Source: an uncultured Clostridia bacterium | GTDB taxonomy: Bacteria > Bacillota > Clostridia > TANB77 > CAG-508 | Length of the DNA: 33,103 bases | NCBI GenBank assembly: GCA_948505485.1 | Contig: CAOPQH010000002.1 | Span: 1-33,103 of the forward strand | Direction of reading: 5' to 3' | Shown: in pieces, positions 1,356-9,976 of the stretch | How positions within the stretch are numbered: position 1 is the stretch's first letter | Layout of the letters: each line of letters starts with the position of its first letter | Translations under genes and position numbers: made by a program | Notes under the pieces: generated by a model | Database searches by the model: none | The model's input: only the letters and a program-made list of their open reading frames with translations | What the model was told of the DNA's origin: nothing

Positions 1356-1880
1356 TTATACAAATGCATCTGCATTTGCATATAATTTAGTAAAGTCAAA
1401 GTTTGTATAATCTCTTCCCTTATAGTTCGATTTCTTATTGCTATTCGAACTATTATTATATATCTTTTTATTTTTTATATTATTTATTATATCTTTGTCA
1501 TTCTTATCTATAGGGCATAGTTGTTTTTGACTATCTGAATAGTTACTTTCTTCAATACCCTCTTGAATTTTTTGACTATACCTATTGATGTTTTCGACTA
1601 TAGGTATAATTTGTCTTTGTTCTATTTCTTTACTATCTGTTTTGTATTTTAACTTAATATTTACATATCCTTTATCTTTTAGTGAACTTATAATTTTAGA
1701 TACTCTTTCGTGTGTTACTTTTACAATGTTTGCAATATATTTATTACTTGCAAAGCAACTTTTAGTTTCTTCACTTAAATACAGAATTATTGCAAGTATT
1801 ATTTTTTCTTTATCTGATAAATCTTCATTTAATAAGATTTCTGCTGAAATCCATAATCCTTTTAATTTTTGCATTTGCAA
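1356..1880 (-). CDS. Winged-helix/HTH DNA-binding protein, possibly the replication or partition organiser of the mobile element
   Basis: 174-aa ORF with RBS AAAGGAGGA. The N-terminal 80 aa (LSDKEKIILAIILYLSEE..CFASNKYIANIVKVTHERVSKIISSLKDKGYV) looks like a wHTH domain. The C-terminal half is low-complexity and N/K-rich. Confidence 0.5.
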   Translation of the reverse strand: MQMQKLKGLWISAEILLNEDLSDKEKIILAIILYLSEETKSCFASNKYIANIVKVTHERVSKIISSLKDKGYVNIKLKYKTDSKEIEQRQIIPIVENINRYSQKIQEGIEESNYSDSQKQLCPIDKNDKDIINNIKNKKIYNNSSNSNKKSNYKGRDYTNFDFTKLYANADAFV

Positions 1881-1959
1881 TCCTCCTTTCGTTTGGTTTT
1901 ATTCGCTCCACGTTCAATTTTGTGGCTTTTTAAATTGTTTTTAGTATAAGTTTAGGTCA

Positions 1960-1996
1960 AAAAAATAAAGCCTTAAAATTTTACTTTTAAAGCTTT
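1960..1996 (-). terminator. Terminator downstream of ORF 2008-2283
   Basis: Hairpin aaagccttaaaa/ttttaaagcttt, followed on the minus strand by TTTATTTTTTT. Confidence 0.5.
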
Positions 1997-2007
1997 ATTA
2001 AAATATT

Positions 2008-2283
2008 TTATTTAATTACCAATCCCAACTTCACAACAGGATTTCTTTCACTCAAGAAAACTCCTTTTATTTCAATACTTTCTGGAATCGCACAAGCATT
2101 GCTCACACCAACTTGTCCATTTTTCTTACCGTTCTTTAGTGTTACATCCGTGTGTACTGTACTTTTACTTATTCCGTACTTTTTTGCTGTTCCACGAACT
2201 GTATCTTTTGAATCTATTATATAATGTGCAAGTGTTACTGCACGTTCTTCTATTGATATTCCTTTCATAAAGAAAACCCCCAT
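2008..2283 (-). CDS. Small HTH protein with a SpoIIID-like N-terminal half; the C-terminal half is unrelated
   Basis: Residues MKGISIEERAVTLAHYIIDSKDTVRGTAKKYGISKSTVHTDVT resemble the SpoIIID HTH (KSTVHKD motif, from memory). The likely true start is the internal Met at 2268. After DVT the similarity is lost. Confidence 0.45.
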   Translation of the reverse strand: MGVFFMKGISIEERAVTLAHYIIDSKDTVRGTAKKYGISKSTVHTDVTLKNGKKNGQVGVSNACAIPESIEIKGVFLSERNPVVKLGLVIK

Positions 2284-2450
2284 ATGAATACTTTTGTTTA
2301 ATTGTATTCGTATAAGGGTTGTATTAGAACTATTTCATTTTTCACTTTTATTTTTATATTGTTAATTTTTTGCATACAATAAATTATTTAGCATATTTTA
2401 TTTTTTTTTAGTTAATACTACTAATATATTTAAGTCTAAGGAGGATTTTA

Positions 2451-2885
2451 ATGGAAAATCAGAATTTGAATGTTTTAGATGAAGTTAATAAAGGTGCTAC
2501 TATGGGAATGGATGCAATTTCTTATGTATCTGACAAAGCAAAAGATGGAAATTTTAAAGATGTTTTAGATATTGAATACAATAAATACAAAAAGATTTCT
2601 AATAGAGTCAACCAACTATATAGTAATTATAGCAATAAAGAACCTCATGAAACAAATGCTATGAATAAAATGATGACTTGGTATGGTATACAAATGAAAA
2701 CTATGACTGATGATACAACTTCTAAATTGTCTGAATTATTAATGCAAGGTACTAATATGGGAATTATTGAGGGTAGAAGATTAATTAATCAAAATAATCA
2801 ACTTGCACAAGATGTTGAATCTATCTTAAATGATTTTGTTACTATGCAAGAAGATAGTGTAGAGACTTTAAAAAAATATTTATAA
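2451..2885 (+). CDS. Hypothetical all-helical protein (four-helix-bundle-like)
   Basis: 144-aa ORF with a strong RBS (AAGGAGGA, 7 nt upstream). It is the only convincing plus-strand gene. No family was recognised with confidence. Confidence 0.6.
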   Translation: MENQNLNVLDEVNKGATMGMDAISYVSDKAKDGNFKDVLDIEYNKYKKISNRVNQLYSNYSNKEPHETNAMNKMMTWYGIQMKTMTDDTTSKLSELLMQGTNMGIIEGRRLINQNNQLAQDVESILNDFVTMQEDSVETLKKYL

Positions 2886-2912
2886 AAGATGAAAAGTTAC
2901 TTTTCATCTTTT
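2884..2912. terminator. Bidirectional terminator between convergent genes
   Basis: Perfect 12-bp stem aaaagatgaaaa/ttttcatctttt with a 5-nt loop, flanked by A and T runs. Confidence 0.7.
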
Positions 2913-2920
2913 ATAAATTC

Positions 2921-4684
2921 CTATTTTTGTTTTAGCCTTAAATATCCTAATTCATTCCATACGTTATACGCTAGGTTTAATCTAAATAATACTTTTGGTT
3001 TTGCTCCTGCTCTGTTTTTATCTACAACGCATGCATAATATCTTACATCTGGATCTTTGAATTTTTCTAAATCAAAAAATTTTGTGTCTACTTCTTCTAA
3101 AGAGTATTCATAATCCTCTAAATTATCCCTATGTATTTGTTTTATTAAGCATAATGTATCTAATACCTCTTTTACTGTTCTACTAACAGCTAAATCATTT
3201 ATAGTTAAGTTTATTGGTAATGTATCTGTCTCTGTCAATTGTAAAGTTGCTCCTATGAAAATATTAAAATTTTGTGCTATATTAGAAAGAATTGTTGCTG
3301 TTTTCTTTAATTCCTCTCCTATTCCTATATTAGCTGTATCTGTTTTCATTGTATCATAGAAAACATATTCTATTTTTTCCTTATAGTAATAATTCATTAT
3401 TATCTTTTTTAACTCATCATTTGTGTGATCTGTAATATTTGCAAAATAGATTGAATTATTGATTTCTTTGTTTAGCCAATCAGTTGCATTTGTTACTTGA
3501 TTAAATTCTGTTGAAATTTTTTTCAATCTTTTAACAAATTGTTCTTGTGTTTCTTTTTCTTCTTTTATTATAAATCCTTTTTCATCAACTTTAACATCTT
3601 TAGGATCATCTGGTCTGAATTTAAATTCTAATAATTCTCCTTCTGTTTTTGATATTTTCTGTCCATGTAAATCTTGAATTGCTGTATTGTTTAATATTGT
3701 AGTTATTAAACATAATCTCATTTTTTCTTCTGACATTTCATTAGAAATAATTAATACTTTCTTTTTATGTACAAATGCTACCTGGCTTGCTAAATCTATT
3801 GTAAATCTACTTTTACCTGCATTTGATGGCATTGCAAATGCCATAGTTTCTCCTTTTCTCATGCCTTTAAAGACACTTGTTAATATTGGAAATGGTAAGT
3901 CTAATCCGTTTGTTAGGCTATTATCTCCTTTTAATAAAAAACTTGTTAAATTTTCATTTAACACTGCTTTTTTAAATTTGCTTGTAGCGCATACTTGTTC
4001 TACAGCACTTTCTACTTCTTCAACTGTCATTTTATCATATAATTCATAATTTGTAATATCTTTAACTATGTCTTTTAATTCTTTTATTGGTATTCTTAAA
4101 TAACTTCTTCTTAATGCAAATAATTTTTTTAATTCTATATAGTTTTTTTCTGTATCTACAGGTTGATTTCTTACCATACTTTCAAGTTCTTTTTTTAGTT
4201 GATTGCTTTCTAGTGTGTCTTTTGCAAAATTAAAATTATTTTTTGCTATCTCTGGTGCATATGCTTGCCCCTCTGTAAATAAAATACTTTTATAAATATT
4301 TAAAAGTATTTCTTCCTCAAATGCAACTTCATCATGTAGAAAATAATACATAGATATAGCTTTAGGATTGTTTAATAACATTCCTATATAATTTCTTTCA
4401 AGTTCTTTATTTTTTAGTTCTTTTGGGTATATGCCATCTGTTTCTTCTTTTATTTCTATCTTTTTTACTTTTTCTTTTTTCGTGTTATTCTCTTTTTGAT
4501 TTATTTCTTCTTTTTTAGTATCTTTAGATTTATTTTTTCTAAGTTCTCTAATTTCTTCTAGCGCACTATCATAATCTTCTTGTTTTAATAATTCTCTTAT
4601 ATTATCTATTTTCTTTTTATTTTTTCCATTTCCTTGCATTATGTCTAAATAATTATATATTTTCTCTAATTCTTCTTCTCCCAT
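2921..4684 (-). CDS. Divergent DnaB-like replicative helicase family ATPase with a K/E-rich N-terminal extension
   Basis: 587 aa. Has a DnaB N-domain-like segment (NYIGMLLNNPKAISMYYFL), Walker A AMPSNAGKSRF, a Walker B-like IEYVFYDTMK, and C-terminal VVDKNRAGAKPK resembling the DnaB arginine-finger region. It is longer and more divergent than a housekeeping DnaB. Confidence 0.6.
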   Translation of the reverse strand: MGEEELEKIYNYLDIMQGNGKNKKKIDNIRELLKQEDYDSALEEIRELRKNKSKDTKKEEINQKENNTKKEKVKKIEIKEETDGIYPKELKNKELERNYIGMLLNNPKAISMYYFLHDEVAFEEEILLNIYKSILFTEGQAYAPEIAKNNFNFAKDTLESNQLKKELESMVRNQPVDTEKNYIELKKLFALRRSYLRIPIKELKDIVKDITNYELYDKMTVEEVESAVEQVCATSKFKKAVLNENLTSFLLKGDNSLTNGLDLPFPILTSVFKGMRKGETMAFAMPSNAGKSRFTIDLASQVAFVHKKKVLIISNEMSEEKMRLCLITTILNNTAIQDLHGQKISKTEGELLEFKFRPDDPKDVKVDEKGFIIKEEKETQEQFVKRLKKISTEFNQVTNATDWLNKEINNSIYFANITDHTNDELKKIIMNYYYKEKIEYVFYDTMKTDTANIGIGEELKKTATILSNIAQNFNIFIGATLQLTETDTLPINLTINDLAVSRTVKEVLDTLCLIKQIHRDNLEDYEYSLEEVDTKFFDLEKFKDPDVRYYACVVDKNRAGAKPKVLFRLNLAYNVWNELGYLRLKQK

Positions 4685-4851: not shown

Positions 4852-5763
4852 CTATTCAATAAGTAAATTTTGAGTTTGAATCTCATTTCTATATTCTTTT
4901 AATATATCTGTGTATGATGTAATAACCTTTGCTCCTTGTTTTATTAATTCATTGGTTCCTTTTGAATTTTCAGAATTAATATTTCCTGGAACTACAAATA
5001 CATCTCTTCCTTGTTCTAAAGCAAAGTCTACTGTAATTAGCGTTCCACTTTTTTTCTTTGCTTCTACTACAATTACTGCATTACTCATTCCACTTATTAT
5101 TCTATTTCTTGCTGGAAAATTCATCTTTTCAGGTTTTACTCCTATAGGATATTCTGAAATTATACATCCATTTAATTCTAGTATTTTGTCCATAATCTTT
5201 TTATTTTCTTTTGGATATATTGTATCTAATCCATTACCTACAACTGCAATAGTTTTTCCTTTTGATAAAATTGCTCCTACATGTGAATAAGTATCAATTC
5301 CTTTTGCTAATCCACTTATTATATTTATATTTTCTTTAGATATATTATAAGAAAAATTTTGTGCAACCTTTTTACCATATTCACTACATTCTCTACATCC
5401 AATTATTGAAACTCCTATATTATTTAATATATCTTTATTTCCTTTATAATATAAAACTATAGGTGGATCATATATATTTTTTAATAGTTGAGGATATTCT
5501 TTATCTTCTATTGTAATAATTCCTATATTTTCTTTTATCATTTGTGACATATATAAATAAATATTATTTTTATAGCTTTTATTTAGTATTTCATTAACTG
5601 TTTTTTCTCCTATACCTTCAATTTTTAATAATTCTTTTTTGCTTAAATTCCAAATTGCTTTAGGGGTATTATATTTATTTAGCATCTTTTTTATTTTTAC
5701 ACTGCCTAAGTTTTTAATTAATGATAACCAAATCCAATATTTTTTGCTTTCTAAATCTATCAT
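4852..5763 (-). CDS. dprA: DNA processing protein DprA (Smf)
   Basis: 303 aa. N-terminal HhH/SAM-like region, then a Rossmann core with GLAKGIDTYSH and GNGLDTIYPKEN, which are typical DprA motifs. Confidence 0.85.
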   Translation of the reverse strand: MIDLESKKYWIWLSLIKNLGSVKIKKMLNKYNTPKAIWNLSKKELLKIEGIGEKTVNEILNKSYKNNIYLYMSQMIKENIGIITIEDKEYPQLLKNIYDPPIVLYYKGNKDILNNIGVSIIGCRECSEYGKKVAQNFSYNISKENINIISGLAKGIDTYSHVGAILSKGKTIAVVGNGLDTIYPKENKKIMDKILELNGCIISEYPIGVKPEKMNFPARNRIISGMSNAVIVVEAKKKSGTLITVDFALEQGRDVFVVPGNINSENSKGTNELIKQGAKVITSYTDILKEYRNEIQTQNLLIE

Positions 5764-6111
5764 TAAACCTTCTTTCTTGCCCCTATTTAATTTTTAACTC
5801 AAAATCATTTACAATTTTATACTCCATATCTGTTGTATGTATCTTAAAATTATCATATTCGCAAACATAACATAAGGTTTTCTACTTTACCTTTATTTTC
5901 ACAAAGTAATTGCTGACTTATCCGCTTTACCCATTTTCATGGTATCAACTACATATACTATGTAATGACAATTTCTCAACACAAATACATTATACTATAT
6001 ATTTTTTGAAAATGGAATATAAACATTCTTTTTTTATTTACTTATAGCTATATACTTTTTAATATTTTTTATACTCACTTCTGTTTATTTTTATAAAATT
6101 ATTAAAAATTT

Positions 6112-6603
6112 TTATTTATATTGTTGTAATTTTTCTTCTAACATTTTAAAATCACAACATCTATTAATTATTCTTTGTGGTAATTTTTTATTTATGACTC
6201 TATTGTATAAATTTTTAGCTCTATTTAGGATTATATTTGCATTTTTCTTTTCGTTACACCAATGTATTTGCTTATATAATAATGTTTTATATGTTTCATC
6301 TTGTTCATTTTCAACATCAATTTTTATACATTGCTCCATTGGAATTGGTATCATATTATTAAAGTTAATTGCTCCTAAACTTCCATTATCTATTTTTAAA
6401 AAGTCTATTGTGTTCTTCATTTTTAAGTGTTTCGGTTTAGGAGATGTGAATGGTGCAAAATATAATATTTCGTCTACTTTTAATACAATTCCTATAAATG
6501 GTCTTCTTGCTTTTTCATCATAGGATTTTGATATTCTTTTATCAAATTGGCTCATATATTTTACATATTCTTCTTTAACTATATAAAAATTTAATTTTTC
6601 CAT
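6112..6603 (-). CDS. toxN: Type III toxin-antitoxin toxin, ToxN/AbiQ-family endoribonuclease
   Basis: 163 aa. It aligns along its length with my recollection of Pectobacterium ToxN: FYIVKEEYVKYM vs FYTISSKYIEYL, RPFIGIVL vs KAFIGIVL, APFTSPKPKH vs APLTSPKKWH, MIPI vs MIPI, YKTLLYKQIHW vs YKRMLYKQLQF, CDFKMLEEK vs CNFSLLEEK. RBS AAGGAG. It lies directly downstream of the tandem repeats. Confidence 0.85.
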   Translation of the reverse strand: MEKLNFYIVKEEYVKYMSQFDKRISKSYDEKARRPFIGIVLKVDEILYFAPFTSPKPKHLKMKNTIDFLKIDNGSLGAINFNNMIPIPMEQCIKIDVENEQDETYKTLLYKQIHWCNEKKNANIILNRAKNLYNRVINKKLPQRIINRCCDFKMLEEKLQQYK

Positions 6604-6623
6604 TTATTGCTCCTTAATAAATT

Positions 6624-6645
6624 AGGATACCATTTCTGGTATCCC
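6624..6645 (-). terminator. Attenuator/terminator hairpin between the antitoxin repeats and toxN
   Basis: Stem ggatacc (6625-6631) / ggtatcc (6638-6644) with a 6-nt loop, followed on the minus strand by UAAUUUAUU and then the toxN RBS. This is the same architecture as described for toxIN. Confidence 0.55.
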
Positions 6646-6647
6646 TA

Positions 6648-6757
6648 CTTTTTTCGTTCTTCACTTTATGGTAGAAGTTCACCGCTTTTTTCGTTCCCCA
6701 CTTTATGGTAGAGGCTCACCGCTTTTTTCGTTCCTCACTTATGGTAGAGGCTTACCA
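6648..6757 (-). ncRNA. toxI: ToxI-like type III antitoxin RNA: three tandem 36-37-nt repeats
   Basis: Repeat units at 6648-6684, 6685-6721 and 6722-6757. Minus-strand unit: CGGTGAGCCTCTACCATAAAGTGGGGAACGAAAAAAG. Each unit is bounded by an A-run, and a partial AAAAAG precedes the first transcribed unit. It shares the GGTGA..CTACC.T.AAGTG....GAAA pattern with the 36-nt ToxI repeat as I recall it. Confidence 0.8.
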
Positions 6758-6800
6758 CTTTTTAAACAATAATCAAATTATTGTTTCTTTTATTATATTC

Positions 6801-6829
6801 ATTATAAATTATTTTATTACATTTGTCAA
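6801..6829 (-). promoter_or_regulatory. Consensus sigma-A promoter for the toxI-toxN transcript
   Basis: On the minus strand: TTGACA (6829-6824), an exactly 17-nt spacer, then TATAAT (6806-6801). A 10-bp perfect hairpin aaacaataat/attattgttt (6765-6787) lies between the promoter and the first repeat. Confidence 0.6.
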
Positions 6830-6899
6830 TTACTTTTACGTTAACTTTTGAGGTCCATTTGAAACCTCAAAGCAGTTTATACATAATGTTACACTGCTT

Positions 6900-7559
6900 T
6901 TATTCTATTTCTATACTTTCATCATTTTCTAATATTTCATATTCAACTTCATTTTTATCAAACATTTCTTTTACAAATTCAAAATCTACAGGATATTTAG
7001 GACTATCTGCATGTAGTGGTATTACTAATTTTGCATCAGTTTCTTTTGCAAATAATGAGGCTTCAAAAGCTCCCATTACTACTCCATAATCTGAAACTGG
7101 AATACATAAAACATCACATTTATATTCATTTTGGAAACAAATAGTATCGCTTGTTATATATACTCTCGTTTCGCCATCATCTATTATATATCCAATATTT
7201 TCAATAACCTTTGCTCCTGTTTTCATTATTGGTATATACCCATGTTCAGCATGTACTACTTCTATTTTTATTTTGTTTTCTACATTAATCATATCATTTT
7301 CTTTAACAATATTTATATCTAATGTTGGATGAGCATTTTTAACTTCATTACTTGAATAAACTTTAATATTTTTATCTAATTTTTCTAACACCTCTGTATT
7401 GCAATGGTCTCGATGTTTGTGTGTTATTAAAATTATATCTACAGTATTCCATATATCAAAATACTCCTCTTTATATTTTAAATTTCCTGGATCTACCAAT
7501 ATTTTCTTATCCTTTGTTTCTATTAATAAACATGATTGTGGAAATTTTGTAATTTTCAT
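6900..7559 (-). CDS. MBL-fold metallo-hydrolase
   Basis: 219 aa with the HxHxDH motif (ITHKHRDHCN) and later His/Asp ligands (HAEHG, PLHAD). Confidence 0.75.
   Translation of the reverse strand: MKITKFPQSCLLIETKDKKILVDPGNLKYKEEYFDIWNTVDIILITHKHRDHCNTEVLEKLDKNIKVYSSNEVKNAHPTLDINIVKENDMINVENKIKIEVVHAEHGYIPIMKTGAKVIENIGYIIDDGETRVYITSDTICFQNEYKCDVLCIPVSDYGVVMGAFEASLFAKETDAKLVIPLHADSPKYPVDFEFVKEMFDKNEVEYEILENDESIEIE

Positions 7560-7978: not shown

Positions 7979-7979
<1 letters not shown>
7710..7979 (-). CDS. Hypothetical small protein translationally coupled to ligA
   Basis: The ATG overlaps the ligA stop (TAATG at 7977-7981). An alternative internal start lies 5 codons in, with an AGGAGA RBS. 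No family was recognised. Confidence 0.45.

Positions 7980-9976
<1,997 letters not shown>

Follow-up and report, generated by a model that had tools for sequence, protein, structure and literature searches.

Does a short interval in an uncultured gut Clostridia genome carry a complete type III toxin-antitoxin system, with an RNA antitoxin that annotation of proteins alone would miss? We addressed this question for the toxIN locus at 6112 to 6829 of contig CAOPQH010000002.1 (assembly GCA_948505485.1). The window is the whole 33,103-nucleotide (nt) stretch of this contig that was analysed; coordinates are positions in the window and the locus is read on the minus strand throughout. A preliminary description of this DNA had proposed a complete ToxIN-like locus of this kind, and the proposal passed the tests of toxin profile, toxin fold and repeat homology given below. 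Judged from its sequence and from known systems, the locus is very probably a chromosomal ToxIN-family type III toxin-antitoxin module that probably also acts in abortive infection.

Layout of the toxIN locus

The minus-strand order is promoter, three toxI units, hairpin and toxN, with each part at the position given in the preliminary description or within 1-2 nt of it. The consensus promoter that had been placed at 6829-6801 is a sigma-70-type TTGACA-17-TATAAT (6801..6829) matching the consensus at 12 of 12 positions. This perfect sequence occurs once in the window, with 0.02 occurrences expected from dinucleotide-preserving shuffles, and would place the transcription start near 6794. Between the promoter and the first toxI unit, roughly from +8 to +30 in the predicted toxI transcript, lies a feature absent from the preliminary description, a perfect AU-rich leader stem-loop of 10 base pairs (bp) (AAACAAUAAU-UUG-AUUAUUGUUU, 6764..6786, minus strand; inverted repeat I8, 100% complementary). 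It was seen in the minimum free energy and the centroid folds alike and may act as a 5' stabiliser or an operator; a description of such a stem-loop was not found in the ToxIN literature examined.

The short hairpin that had been noted at 6645-6624 proved to be a 9-bp attenuator- or terminator-like structure between toxI and toxN (GGGAUACC-AGAA-AUGGUAUCCU, minus strand), with four G-C pairs and a 4-nt loop. It is the sole minus-strand terminator-like site in 5700-7000, where shuffles lead to an expectation of 0.2, and a hairpin of at least 6 bp was present at the equivalent position in all 76 related loci with an array. A Shine-Dalgarno sequence, AAGGAG (6610..6615, minus strand), was read from the sequence 6 nt 5' of the toxN ATG.

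ToxN is a member of the ToxN/AbiQ family

The toxN gene (6112..6603, minus strand) encodes a protein of 163 amino acids (aa) that is, by homology, a ToxN/AbiQ-family endoribonuclease toxin. This open reading frame (ORF) had been called ToxN-like in the preliminary description, and the profile search supports the call. The protein matched the full length of the Pfam ToxN_toxin model PF13958 (1-159 of 159, E=5.9e-51, 173 bits against a cut-off of 25) and the PADLOC AbiQ model (E=2.7e-40). The sequence blocks listed there as shared with Pectobacterium ToxN (FIGIVL, AP.TSPK, MIPI, LYKQ, C.F..LEEK) are real. Among solved structures, the protein matched ToxN_Bt (4ATO, 4e-22), ToxN_Ec (7D8O, 1.3e-20), ToxN_Pa (2XD0, 1.3e-19) and AbiQ (4GLK, 2.4e-12). 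An AlphaFold2 model built on 22 relatives (mean predicted local distance difference test score 91.6) has the predicted ToxN fold, a beta core with surrounding helices. Its best Foldseek matches in the PDB by template modelling (TM) score were 7d8o (0.82), 2xd0 (0.81), 4glk (0.80) and 4ato (0.78), and MazF scored about 0.3. Membership in the CptIN or TenpIN families was considered and rejected because ToxN_toxin is the only model to pass the Pfam threshold and CptN (4rmo, 17% identity) reached a TM score of 0.59 compared to 0.8 for ToxN.

In characterised ToxN the catalytic residues are Lys33, Thr52, Ser53 and Lys55, and Tyr110 and Gln117 are RNA-holding (PMC8860590). The aligned residues in the window protein are R34, T53, S54, K56, Y105 and Q112, with a T53-S54-P55-K56 motif; arginine also replaces Lys33 in some E. 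coli clusters (PMC8860590). R34, S54, K56, Y105 and Q112 are invariant across the 22 relatives and T53 is not. The W57 position is occupied by lysine in the window ToxN. No record of the exact window protein was found among the contigs searched for it.

The toxI array and its predicted pseudoknots

Tandem Repeats Finder reported an array at 6648-6763 with a period of 37, 3.2 copies, 90% matches and a score of 183. The three head-to-tail repeats of 36-37 nt with A-runs that had been claimed are present as units of 36, 37 and 37 nt at 6758-6649: unit 1 (6723..6758, GUGGUAAGCCUCUACCAUAAGUGAGGAACGAAAAAA), unit 2 (6686..6722, GCGGUGAGCCUCUACCAUAAAGUGGGGAACGAAAAAA) and unit 3 (6649..6685), all on the minus strand. 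An A5 run precedes unit 1 and an A6 run closes each unit, so that every unit is complete and has A-runs on both sides. With a covariance model derived from related loci, exactly three matches were obtained in the window, all of them units of the array (24.8, 39.3 and 31.1 bits for units 1 to 3), and the next best match had E=0.09.

The window units align without gaps to ToxI_Pa, the repeat of pECA1039, over its 26-nt core (positions 1-26). The GGTGA..CTACC.T.AAGTG..GAAA skeleton that the preliminary description had quoted is therefore borne out by the actual pECA1039 repeat. The units retain the ToxI hallmarks G5 (except in unit 1), A6, U12, A19, A20, G21, U22 and the two central stem-1 G-C pairs, and the same nucleotides are named as conserved and as forming A-minor contacts and a U:U:G triple in the published work (PMC8860590). 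In window unit numbering the proposed pseudoknot consists of stem 1 (G3-C16, G4-C15, U5-A14), stem 2 (C9-G27, C/U10-G/A26, U11-R25, C12-G24) and the triple U13:U23:G22. Stem 2 is formed by CCUC/GAGG in unit 1, CCUC/GGGG in unit 2 and CUUC/GAAG in unit 3.

Covariation was assessed in 80 ToxN-encoding loci from GTDB species representatives, which were the best-scoring of at least 549 stretches. An upstream array was present in 74 of the 80, with units of 34-41 nt (59 nt in two) and mostly about 3.2 copies. Across 55 distinct consensus units, the proposed pseudoknot pairs formed in 87% of cells compared to 77% in shuffles, and none of 500 shuffles reached the observed value; sliding the pairing partners left only 24-50% of cells paired. 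Stem 1 alternates between GGU:ACC, GGC:GCC and AGC:GCU across these unit types, and the position equivalent to the triple takes CG, GC, UG, AU and UA combinations. Among 14 distinct window-type units, 100% of cells pair, and unit 3 shows a compensatory change from C-G to U-A. An alternative register one position off, which came from the MAFFT alignment and the covariance model, paired 79% of cells and was rejected. These results support an H-type ToxI pseudoknot, predicted in each unit, and the related loci provide natural covariation that backs the published ToxI pseudoknot and base triple.

Conservation among close relatives

Nine close relatives (L001-L009) encode a ToxN 79-98% identical to that of the window. 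Compared to these, the toxI array shows 0-7 differences over 109 positions (median 1), the promoter 0-2 over 29 nt, the leader 0-1 over 42 nt and the hairpin with the ribosome binding site 0-1 over 46 nt. The toxN gene differs at 17-32 of 492 positions. In the 3' flank we counted 22-36 differences over about 146 positions (16-25%) in six of the nine relatives, and L005, L006 and L007 were more diverged or gapped. The non-coding toxI region is thus about 1% divergent compared to 16-25% in the 3' flank. Intact toxN copies gave a synonymous divergence (dS) of 0.17-0.31 and a ratio of nonsynonymous to synonymous divergence (dN/dS) of 0.06-0.16. The low divergence of the non-coding RNA region together with the low dN/dS of toxN shows purifying selection on both. 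The three units differ from each other, yet they are orthologous by position across the close relatives, and unit 1 with A at position 5 is also found in L001-L003 and L005-L009.

Comparison with known type III systems

By the published criteria, a type III locus is recognised by tandem repeats, a terminator after them and then a toxin gene (Blower et al. 2012, PMC3401426). That survey counted 67 members of the toxIN family, of which 57 were chromosomal, with a mean toxin length of 168 aa (PMC3401426); the repeats measured 31-62 nt (38.1 on average) and were present in 1.9-5.6 copies (2.8 on average) (PMC3401426, Table 2). The window locus has all of the published features, namely a toxin of the family, an upstream array and an intervening palindrome, and with 37 nt in 3.2 copies, 163 aa and a chromosomal location it is the family norm. 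The preliminary description had suggested that three repeats may alter the stoichiometry of assembly. This finds no support, as the family mean is 2.8 and the triangular heterohexamer is 3:3 both in ToxIN_Pa with its 5.5 repeats and in ToxIN_Bt with about 3 (PMC5086642).

ToxIN_Pa (pECA1039, the prototype, PDB 2XD0/2XDD) and ToxIN_Ec (7D8O) have the same order of promoter, tandem toxI, hairpin and toxN, and share with the window toxin the fold (TM 0.81-0.82) and the TSPK catalytic motif. The 26-nt pseudoknot core of ToxIN_Pa has the length and register seen in the window. ToxIN_Pa differs in having 5.6 copies of a 36-nt unit (AGGTGATTTGCTACCTTTAAGTGCAGCTAGAAATTC, from the pECA1039 sequence) compared to three units in the window, 98% unit-to-unit matches compared to 90%, and a location on an enterobacterial plasmid compared to the chromosome of a gut Clostridium lineage of metagenome-assembled genomes (MAGs) with about 25% GC. 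Its linker is AAAUUC, whereas that of the window is A6.

The best sequence match among solved structures, ToxIN_Bt (B. thuringiensis pAW63, 4ATO), comes like the window from a Firmicute host. It has 3.1 units of 34 nt (pAW63 sequence) compared to the 37-nt units of the window, which likewise number about three, and resembles the window in its A-run linkers, which fit A^AAAA cleavage (PMC5086642), and in the arginine at the Lys33 position. In contrast, ToxN_Bt has TSRN where the window ToxN has TSPK, and the window-derived repeat model gave no score on the ToxIN_Bt repeats. AbiQ/antiQ (Lactococcus lactis, 4GLK), which is known to act against phages by abortive infection and cleaves at A^AAA, shares the Pfam/PADLOC family and fold (TM 0.80) of the window toxin; the sequence match is weaker (E=2.4e-12) and the active-site nucleophile is Ser51, a position at which ToxN and the window toxin have threonine. 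The closest locus in an annotated plasmid collection was the uncharacterised toxIN of Fusobacterium polymorphum plasmid pKKCOM1330A (47.5% aa identity), with 3.4 copies of 37-nt units that have the same skeleton and score 34-35 bits with the window-derived model. This locus differs in being plasmid-borne and in an annotated toxin ORF that is much longer than the window toxN.

A serine-recombinase element scar downstream of toxN

Comparison of the DNA 3' of toxN in the relatives revealed an integration site. L004 (3640-3694) has an uninterrupted attB site that reads ...AATTGTCGT TACATAG CAAATTAGCAAG... In L002 and L003 the left half-site is instead joined to other sequence (TACATAG YATATGTAGTTGATACC...), and the right half-site follows about 2.4-2.5 kb onward, preceded by ...CATTTCTTCC TACATAG. 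This second junction is the 3' end of a gene for a large serine recombinase of 615-630 aa (Resolvase, Recombinase and Zn_ribbon_recom domains). The element spans 3653-6020 in L002 and 1756-4236 in L003, and contains only the recombinase and an ORF of about 47 aa. Judged from these junctions, this is the attB, attL and attR pattern of a minimal element of about 2.5 kb integrated 148 nt 3' of the toxN stop. Longer remnants of the element are found in L006, L007 and L009, and the site is empty in L004.

In the window, the TACATAG sequence at 5958..5964 resembles the crossover core of an attL junction and is not part of toxIN. It is followed by a remnant of about 90 nt of the left end of the element (5868..5957) and by the resumed right flank of attB (5849..5814), all on the minus strand. 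As tblastn detected no recombinase in the window, the tail is on this comparison a scar from which the recombinase gene has been deleted. The conserved 244-nt tail after toxN was also considered as a small RNA or a 13-codon ORF (MKMGKADKSAITL), and attL plus the element remnant explains it better. A conserved 23-mer of the shared 3' tail (5945-5923, within the scar) had no exact match in viral contigs. We also rejected toxIN as cargo of the recombinase element because toxIN lies outside attL-attR and is still present at the empty site of L004. These related loci make a clean case of attB, attL and attR for a minimal serine-recombinase element beside a defence gene.

Genomic context and apparent exchange of the cassette

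The cassette had been described as standing alone between the core gene dprA and an MBL (metallo-beta-lactamase)-fold hydrolase. Pfam supports both flanking genes (DprA, 4852-5763; Lactamase_B_3, 6900-7559) as well as an NAD-dependent DNA ligase further upstream (ligA, 7979-9976). The word alone did not stand, given the recombinase scar 148 nt downstream and a replication module past dprA. Every gene in the window is on the minus strand, and GC is about 24-31% across the window with neither a dip nor a peak at the cassette.

Gut MAGs labelled uncultured Clostridium sp. are the closest genomes. With several of these, DNA homology does not extend beyond about 6869..5868, and the flanking genes differ. 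Upstream of toxIN there is a HAD-like hydrolase gene in L001-L003 and L009, an MBL gene in L005, L006 and L008 and an AAA_21 fragment in L004; downstream there is a recombinase gene, folD, a YjbR-like gene or dprA. In all, the cassette is found in no fewer than three gene contexts. Between the window and L004, dS was 0.86 for ligA and 1.22 for a small ORF compared to 0.19 for toxN, which is 4-6 times lower in the cassette, and between the window and L005 it was 0.58 for the MBL gene compared to 0.31 for toxN. Because flank dS is far above toxN dS and the gene contexts differ, the toxIN cassette of about 1 kb appears to have been exchanged horizontally among these species.

Both ends of the cassette carry imperfect palindromes (6871-6847 and 5851-5813). 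The first is a hairpin of 8 bp (UUUGAGGU-9 nt-ACCUCAAA, 6847..6871, minus strand; inverted repeat I15) at the left edge of the DNA common to related cassettes, with homology to L001-L009 starting at about 6852-6869; it may be a cassette boundary or the terminator of the upstream gene. An empty dprA-MBL site was not found: none of 40 metagenome loci with MBL homologues has ligA, toxN or dprA within 4 kb, suggesting that dprA-MBL synteny is not conserved. The exact window MBL protein was found only on one 1.7-kb contig. Viral contigs contained no close relative of toxN, the best match having 50% identity.

A more speculative reading joins these observations. The toxIN module could be more than a static pair of chromosomal genes, namely a self-contained, palindrome-bounded cassette of about 1 kb exchanged among gut Clostridium species, and its conserved 3' flank could be the att site (core TACATAG) of the minimal element of about 2.5 kb. 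There would then be a functional tie between toxIN and the element, in which toxIN might, for instance, keep the landing pad stable. Separately from this, the non-identical, position-conserved units could give a defined heterotypic ToxI set instead of interchangeable copies. We hold these readings to be unlikely.

Proposed mechanism and alternative explanations

By homology, the locus would work as follows. A single strong promoter would drive a transcript that opens with the 5' stem-loop and continues into three ToxI units. Transcription would usually stop at the hairpin at 6645-6624, and occasional read-through would allow translation of ToxN. ToxN would cut the precursor within the A-runs flanking the units to release RNAs of 36-37 nt, and the A-runs around all three units are compatible with processing into single repeats. 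Cleavage is known to occur at AA^AU (Pa), A^AAAA (Bt) and A^AAA (AbiQ) (PMC5086642). Since the window linker is A6 and not AAAUUC, an AA^AU or GAAAU specificity is unlikely; the invariant A-run linkers suggest a specificity resembling that of Bt or AbiQ, probably close to the A^AAAA of ToxN_Bt. Each processed unit would fold into an H-type pseudoknot, and its single-stranded tails would fill the active sites of two adjacent ToxN molecules. The resulting cyclic complex would be inactive and is expected to be 3:3 as in the Pa, Bt and Ec structures. Were toxI synthesis to drop, through phage shut-off of host transcription or through loss of the DNA, the labile RNA would decay and the freed ToxN would cleave A-rich RNAs and arrest the cell.

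Several results weigh against a functional ToxIN module. No NCBIfam model matches the window ToxN, and identity to characterised toxins is low (30% to ToxN_Bt, 33% to ToxN_Pa), making the cleavage specificity a guess. The Rfam ToxI model RF02519 (gathering threshold 50 bits) had no match in the window even at E<=10, and Rfam searches of 5800-7100 at gathering and at E<=10 returned chance matches only, such as NmsRb, snoRNAs and psbA. In a control, RF02519 scored ToxI_Bt alone (59, 47 and 40 bits) and missed the prototype ToxI_Pa, so that the failure in the window reflects a narrow, Bt-specific model. The U-tract of the hairpin (AAUUUAUU) is weak, which leaves the efficiency of termination uncertain. 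Unit 1 has A at the conserved G5 position, described as crucial to ToxI folding (PMC8860590), and a loop 1 nt shorter. In addition, toxN is disrupted by a stop in L006, by frameshifts in L008 and L009 and by an internal deletion in L013, and L008 also lacks 4 nt of the -35 element; the toxI array is nearly unchanged in all four, and the disrupted copies are due either to recent decay or to MAG assembly error. The disruptions, the weak U-tract and the altered unit 1 are also what would speak for an inactive relic, in which the window ORF is intact by chance and the system is no longer expressed or toxic. We consider this very unlikely, as the window toxN copy is intact and full length with all aligned catalytic residues, the promoter is perfect, the ribosome binding site is consensus and the three units are complete, and the dN/dS of 0.06-0.16 and the 1% divergence of the toxI region against 16-25% in the flank indicate ongoing constraint. 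Still less credible, to the point of being extremely improbable, is that the repeats are not an antitoxin at all and are instead a leader or attenuator that regulates in cis, a short repeat that is coding, or low-complexity sequence found by chance beside an orphan ToxN. A 48-aa ORF on the plus strand (6705-6851) does overlap the array, and RefSeq places such an ORF, a 'hypothetical protein' coding sequence, over the toxI of pECA1039 (L082 354-575). However, the homology of the repeats to ToxI as defined by crystallography extends to the nucleotides of its tertiary contacts, covariation keeps the RNA pairing and not codons, arrays accompany ToxN in 74 of 80 genomes and the repeat model matches nowhere else in the window.

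The alternative with the most in its favour accepts the same machine and differs on its role, which would be mainly selfish: the module would serve for addiction to, or stabilisation of, a chromosomal stretch that is variable and mobile, and not for phage defence. ToxIN_Bt is reported to promote plasmid retention (PMC4615649), and the cassette is far less diverged than its flanks (toxN dS of 0.19 compared to 0.86 for ligA and 1.22 for the small ORF), sits in its several gene contexts next to a serine-recombinase att site, and has a replication module beyond dprA. Against this, the location of toxIN outside attL-attR and its retention at the L004 empty site indicate that it is not cargo of the element, and ToxIN_Pa, AbiQ and ToxIN_Ec act as abortive-infection systems (PMC5086642). 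Addiction and defence are not mutually exclusive, and a mainly selfish role seems to us possible but on the unlikely side compared to a ToxIN module that probably also acts in abortive infection.

The conceptual gain from this locus is small, as chromosomal ToxIN with about three repeats of about 37 nt was already usual, and only the cassette exchange, the att-site scar and the positionally conserved non-identical units go beyond the textbook. Its practical value lies in annotation. In other records, the PGAP annotation pipeline gives relatives of the toxin the name 'type III toxin-antitoxin system ToxN/AbiQ family toxin' and leaves the RNA unannotated; neither protein-only pipelines nor the narrow ToxI model of Rfam can see the RNA antitoxin. 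With a covariance model of wider scope, many antitoxins that are now missed in gut MAGs would be recovered.

Neighbouring genes and other observations

The window MBL protein accompanies toxIN in L005, L006 and L008. Its matches to PADLOC RTasMBL (E=9e-4) and, in precomputed Pfam results, to Anti-Pycsar Apyc1 are faint and probably generic cross-hits among MBL proteins. The gene that lies upstream of toxIN in L004 (1713-2144) encodes a C-terminal fragment of an AAA_21/AAA_15 ATPase of a defence-associated type. A large serine recombinase also comes after the distant toxN (37% identity) of viral contig L137 (4001-7604). Just past dprA in the window lies a phage- or plasmid-type replication module (1356-4684, minus strand) that may be part of an integrated element. 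It encodes a DnaD-like or replication-initiator protein (1356-1880, minus strand; HTH_36, phrog_2880) and a 587-aa DnaB-like helicase with a Lys/Glu-rich N-terminus (2921-4684, minus strand), which matches phrog_19 at E=2.7e-25 and falls just below the cut-off of Pfam DnaB_C.

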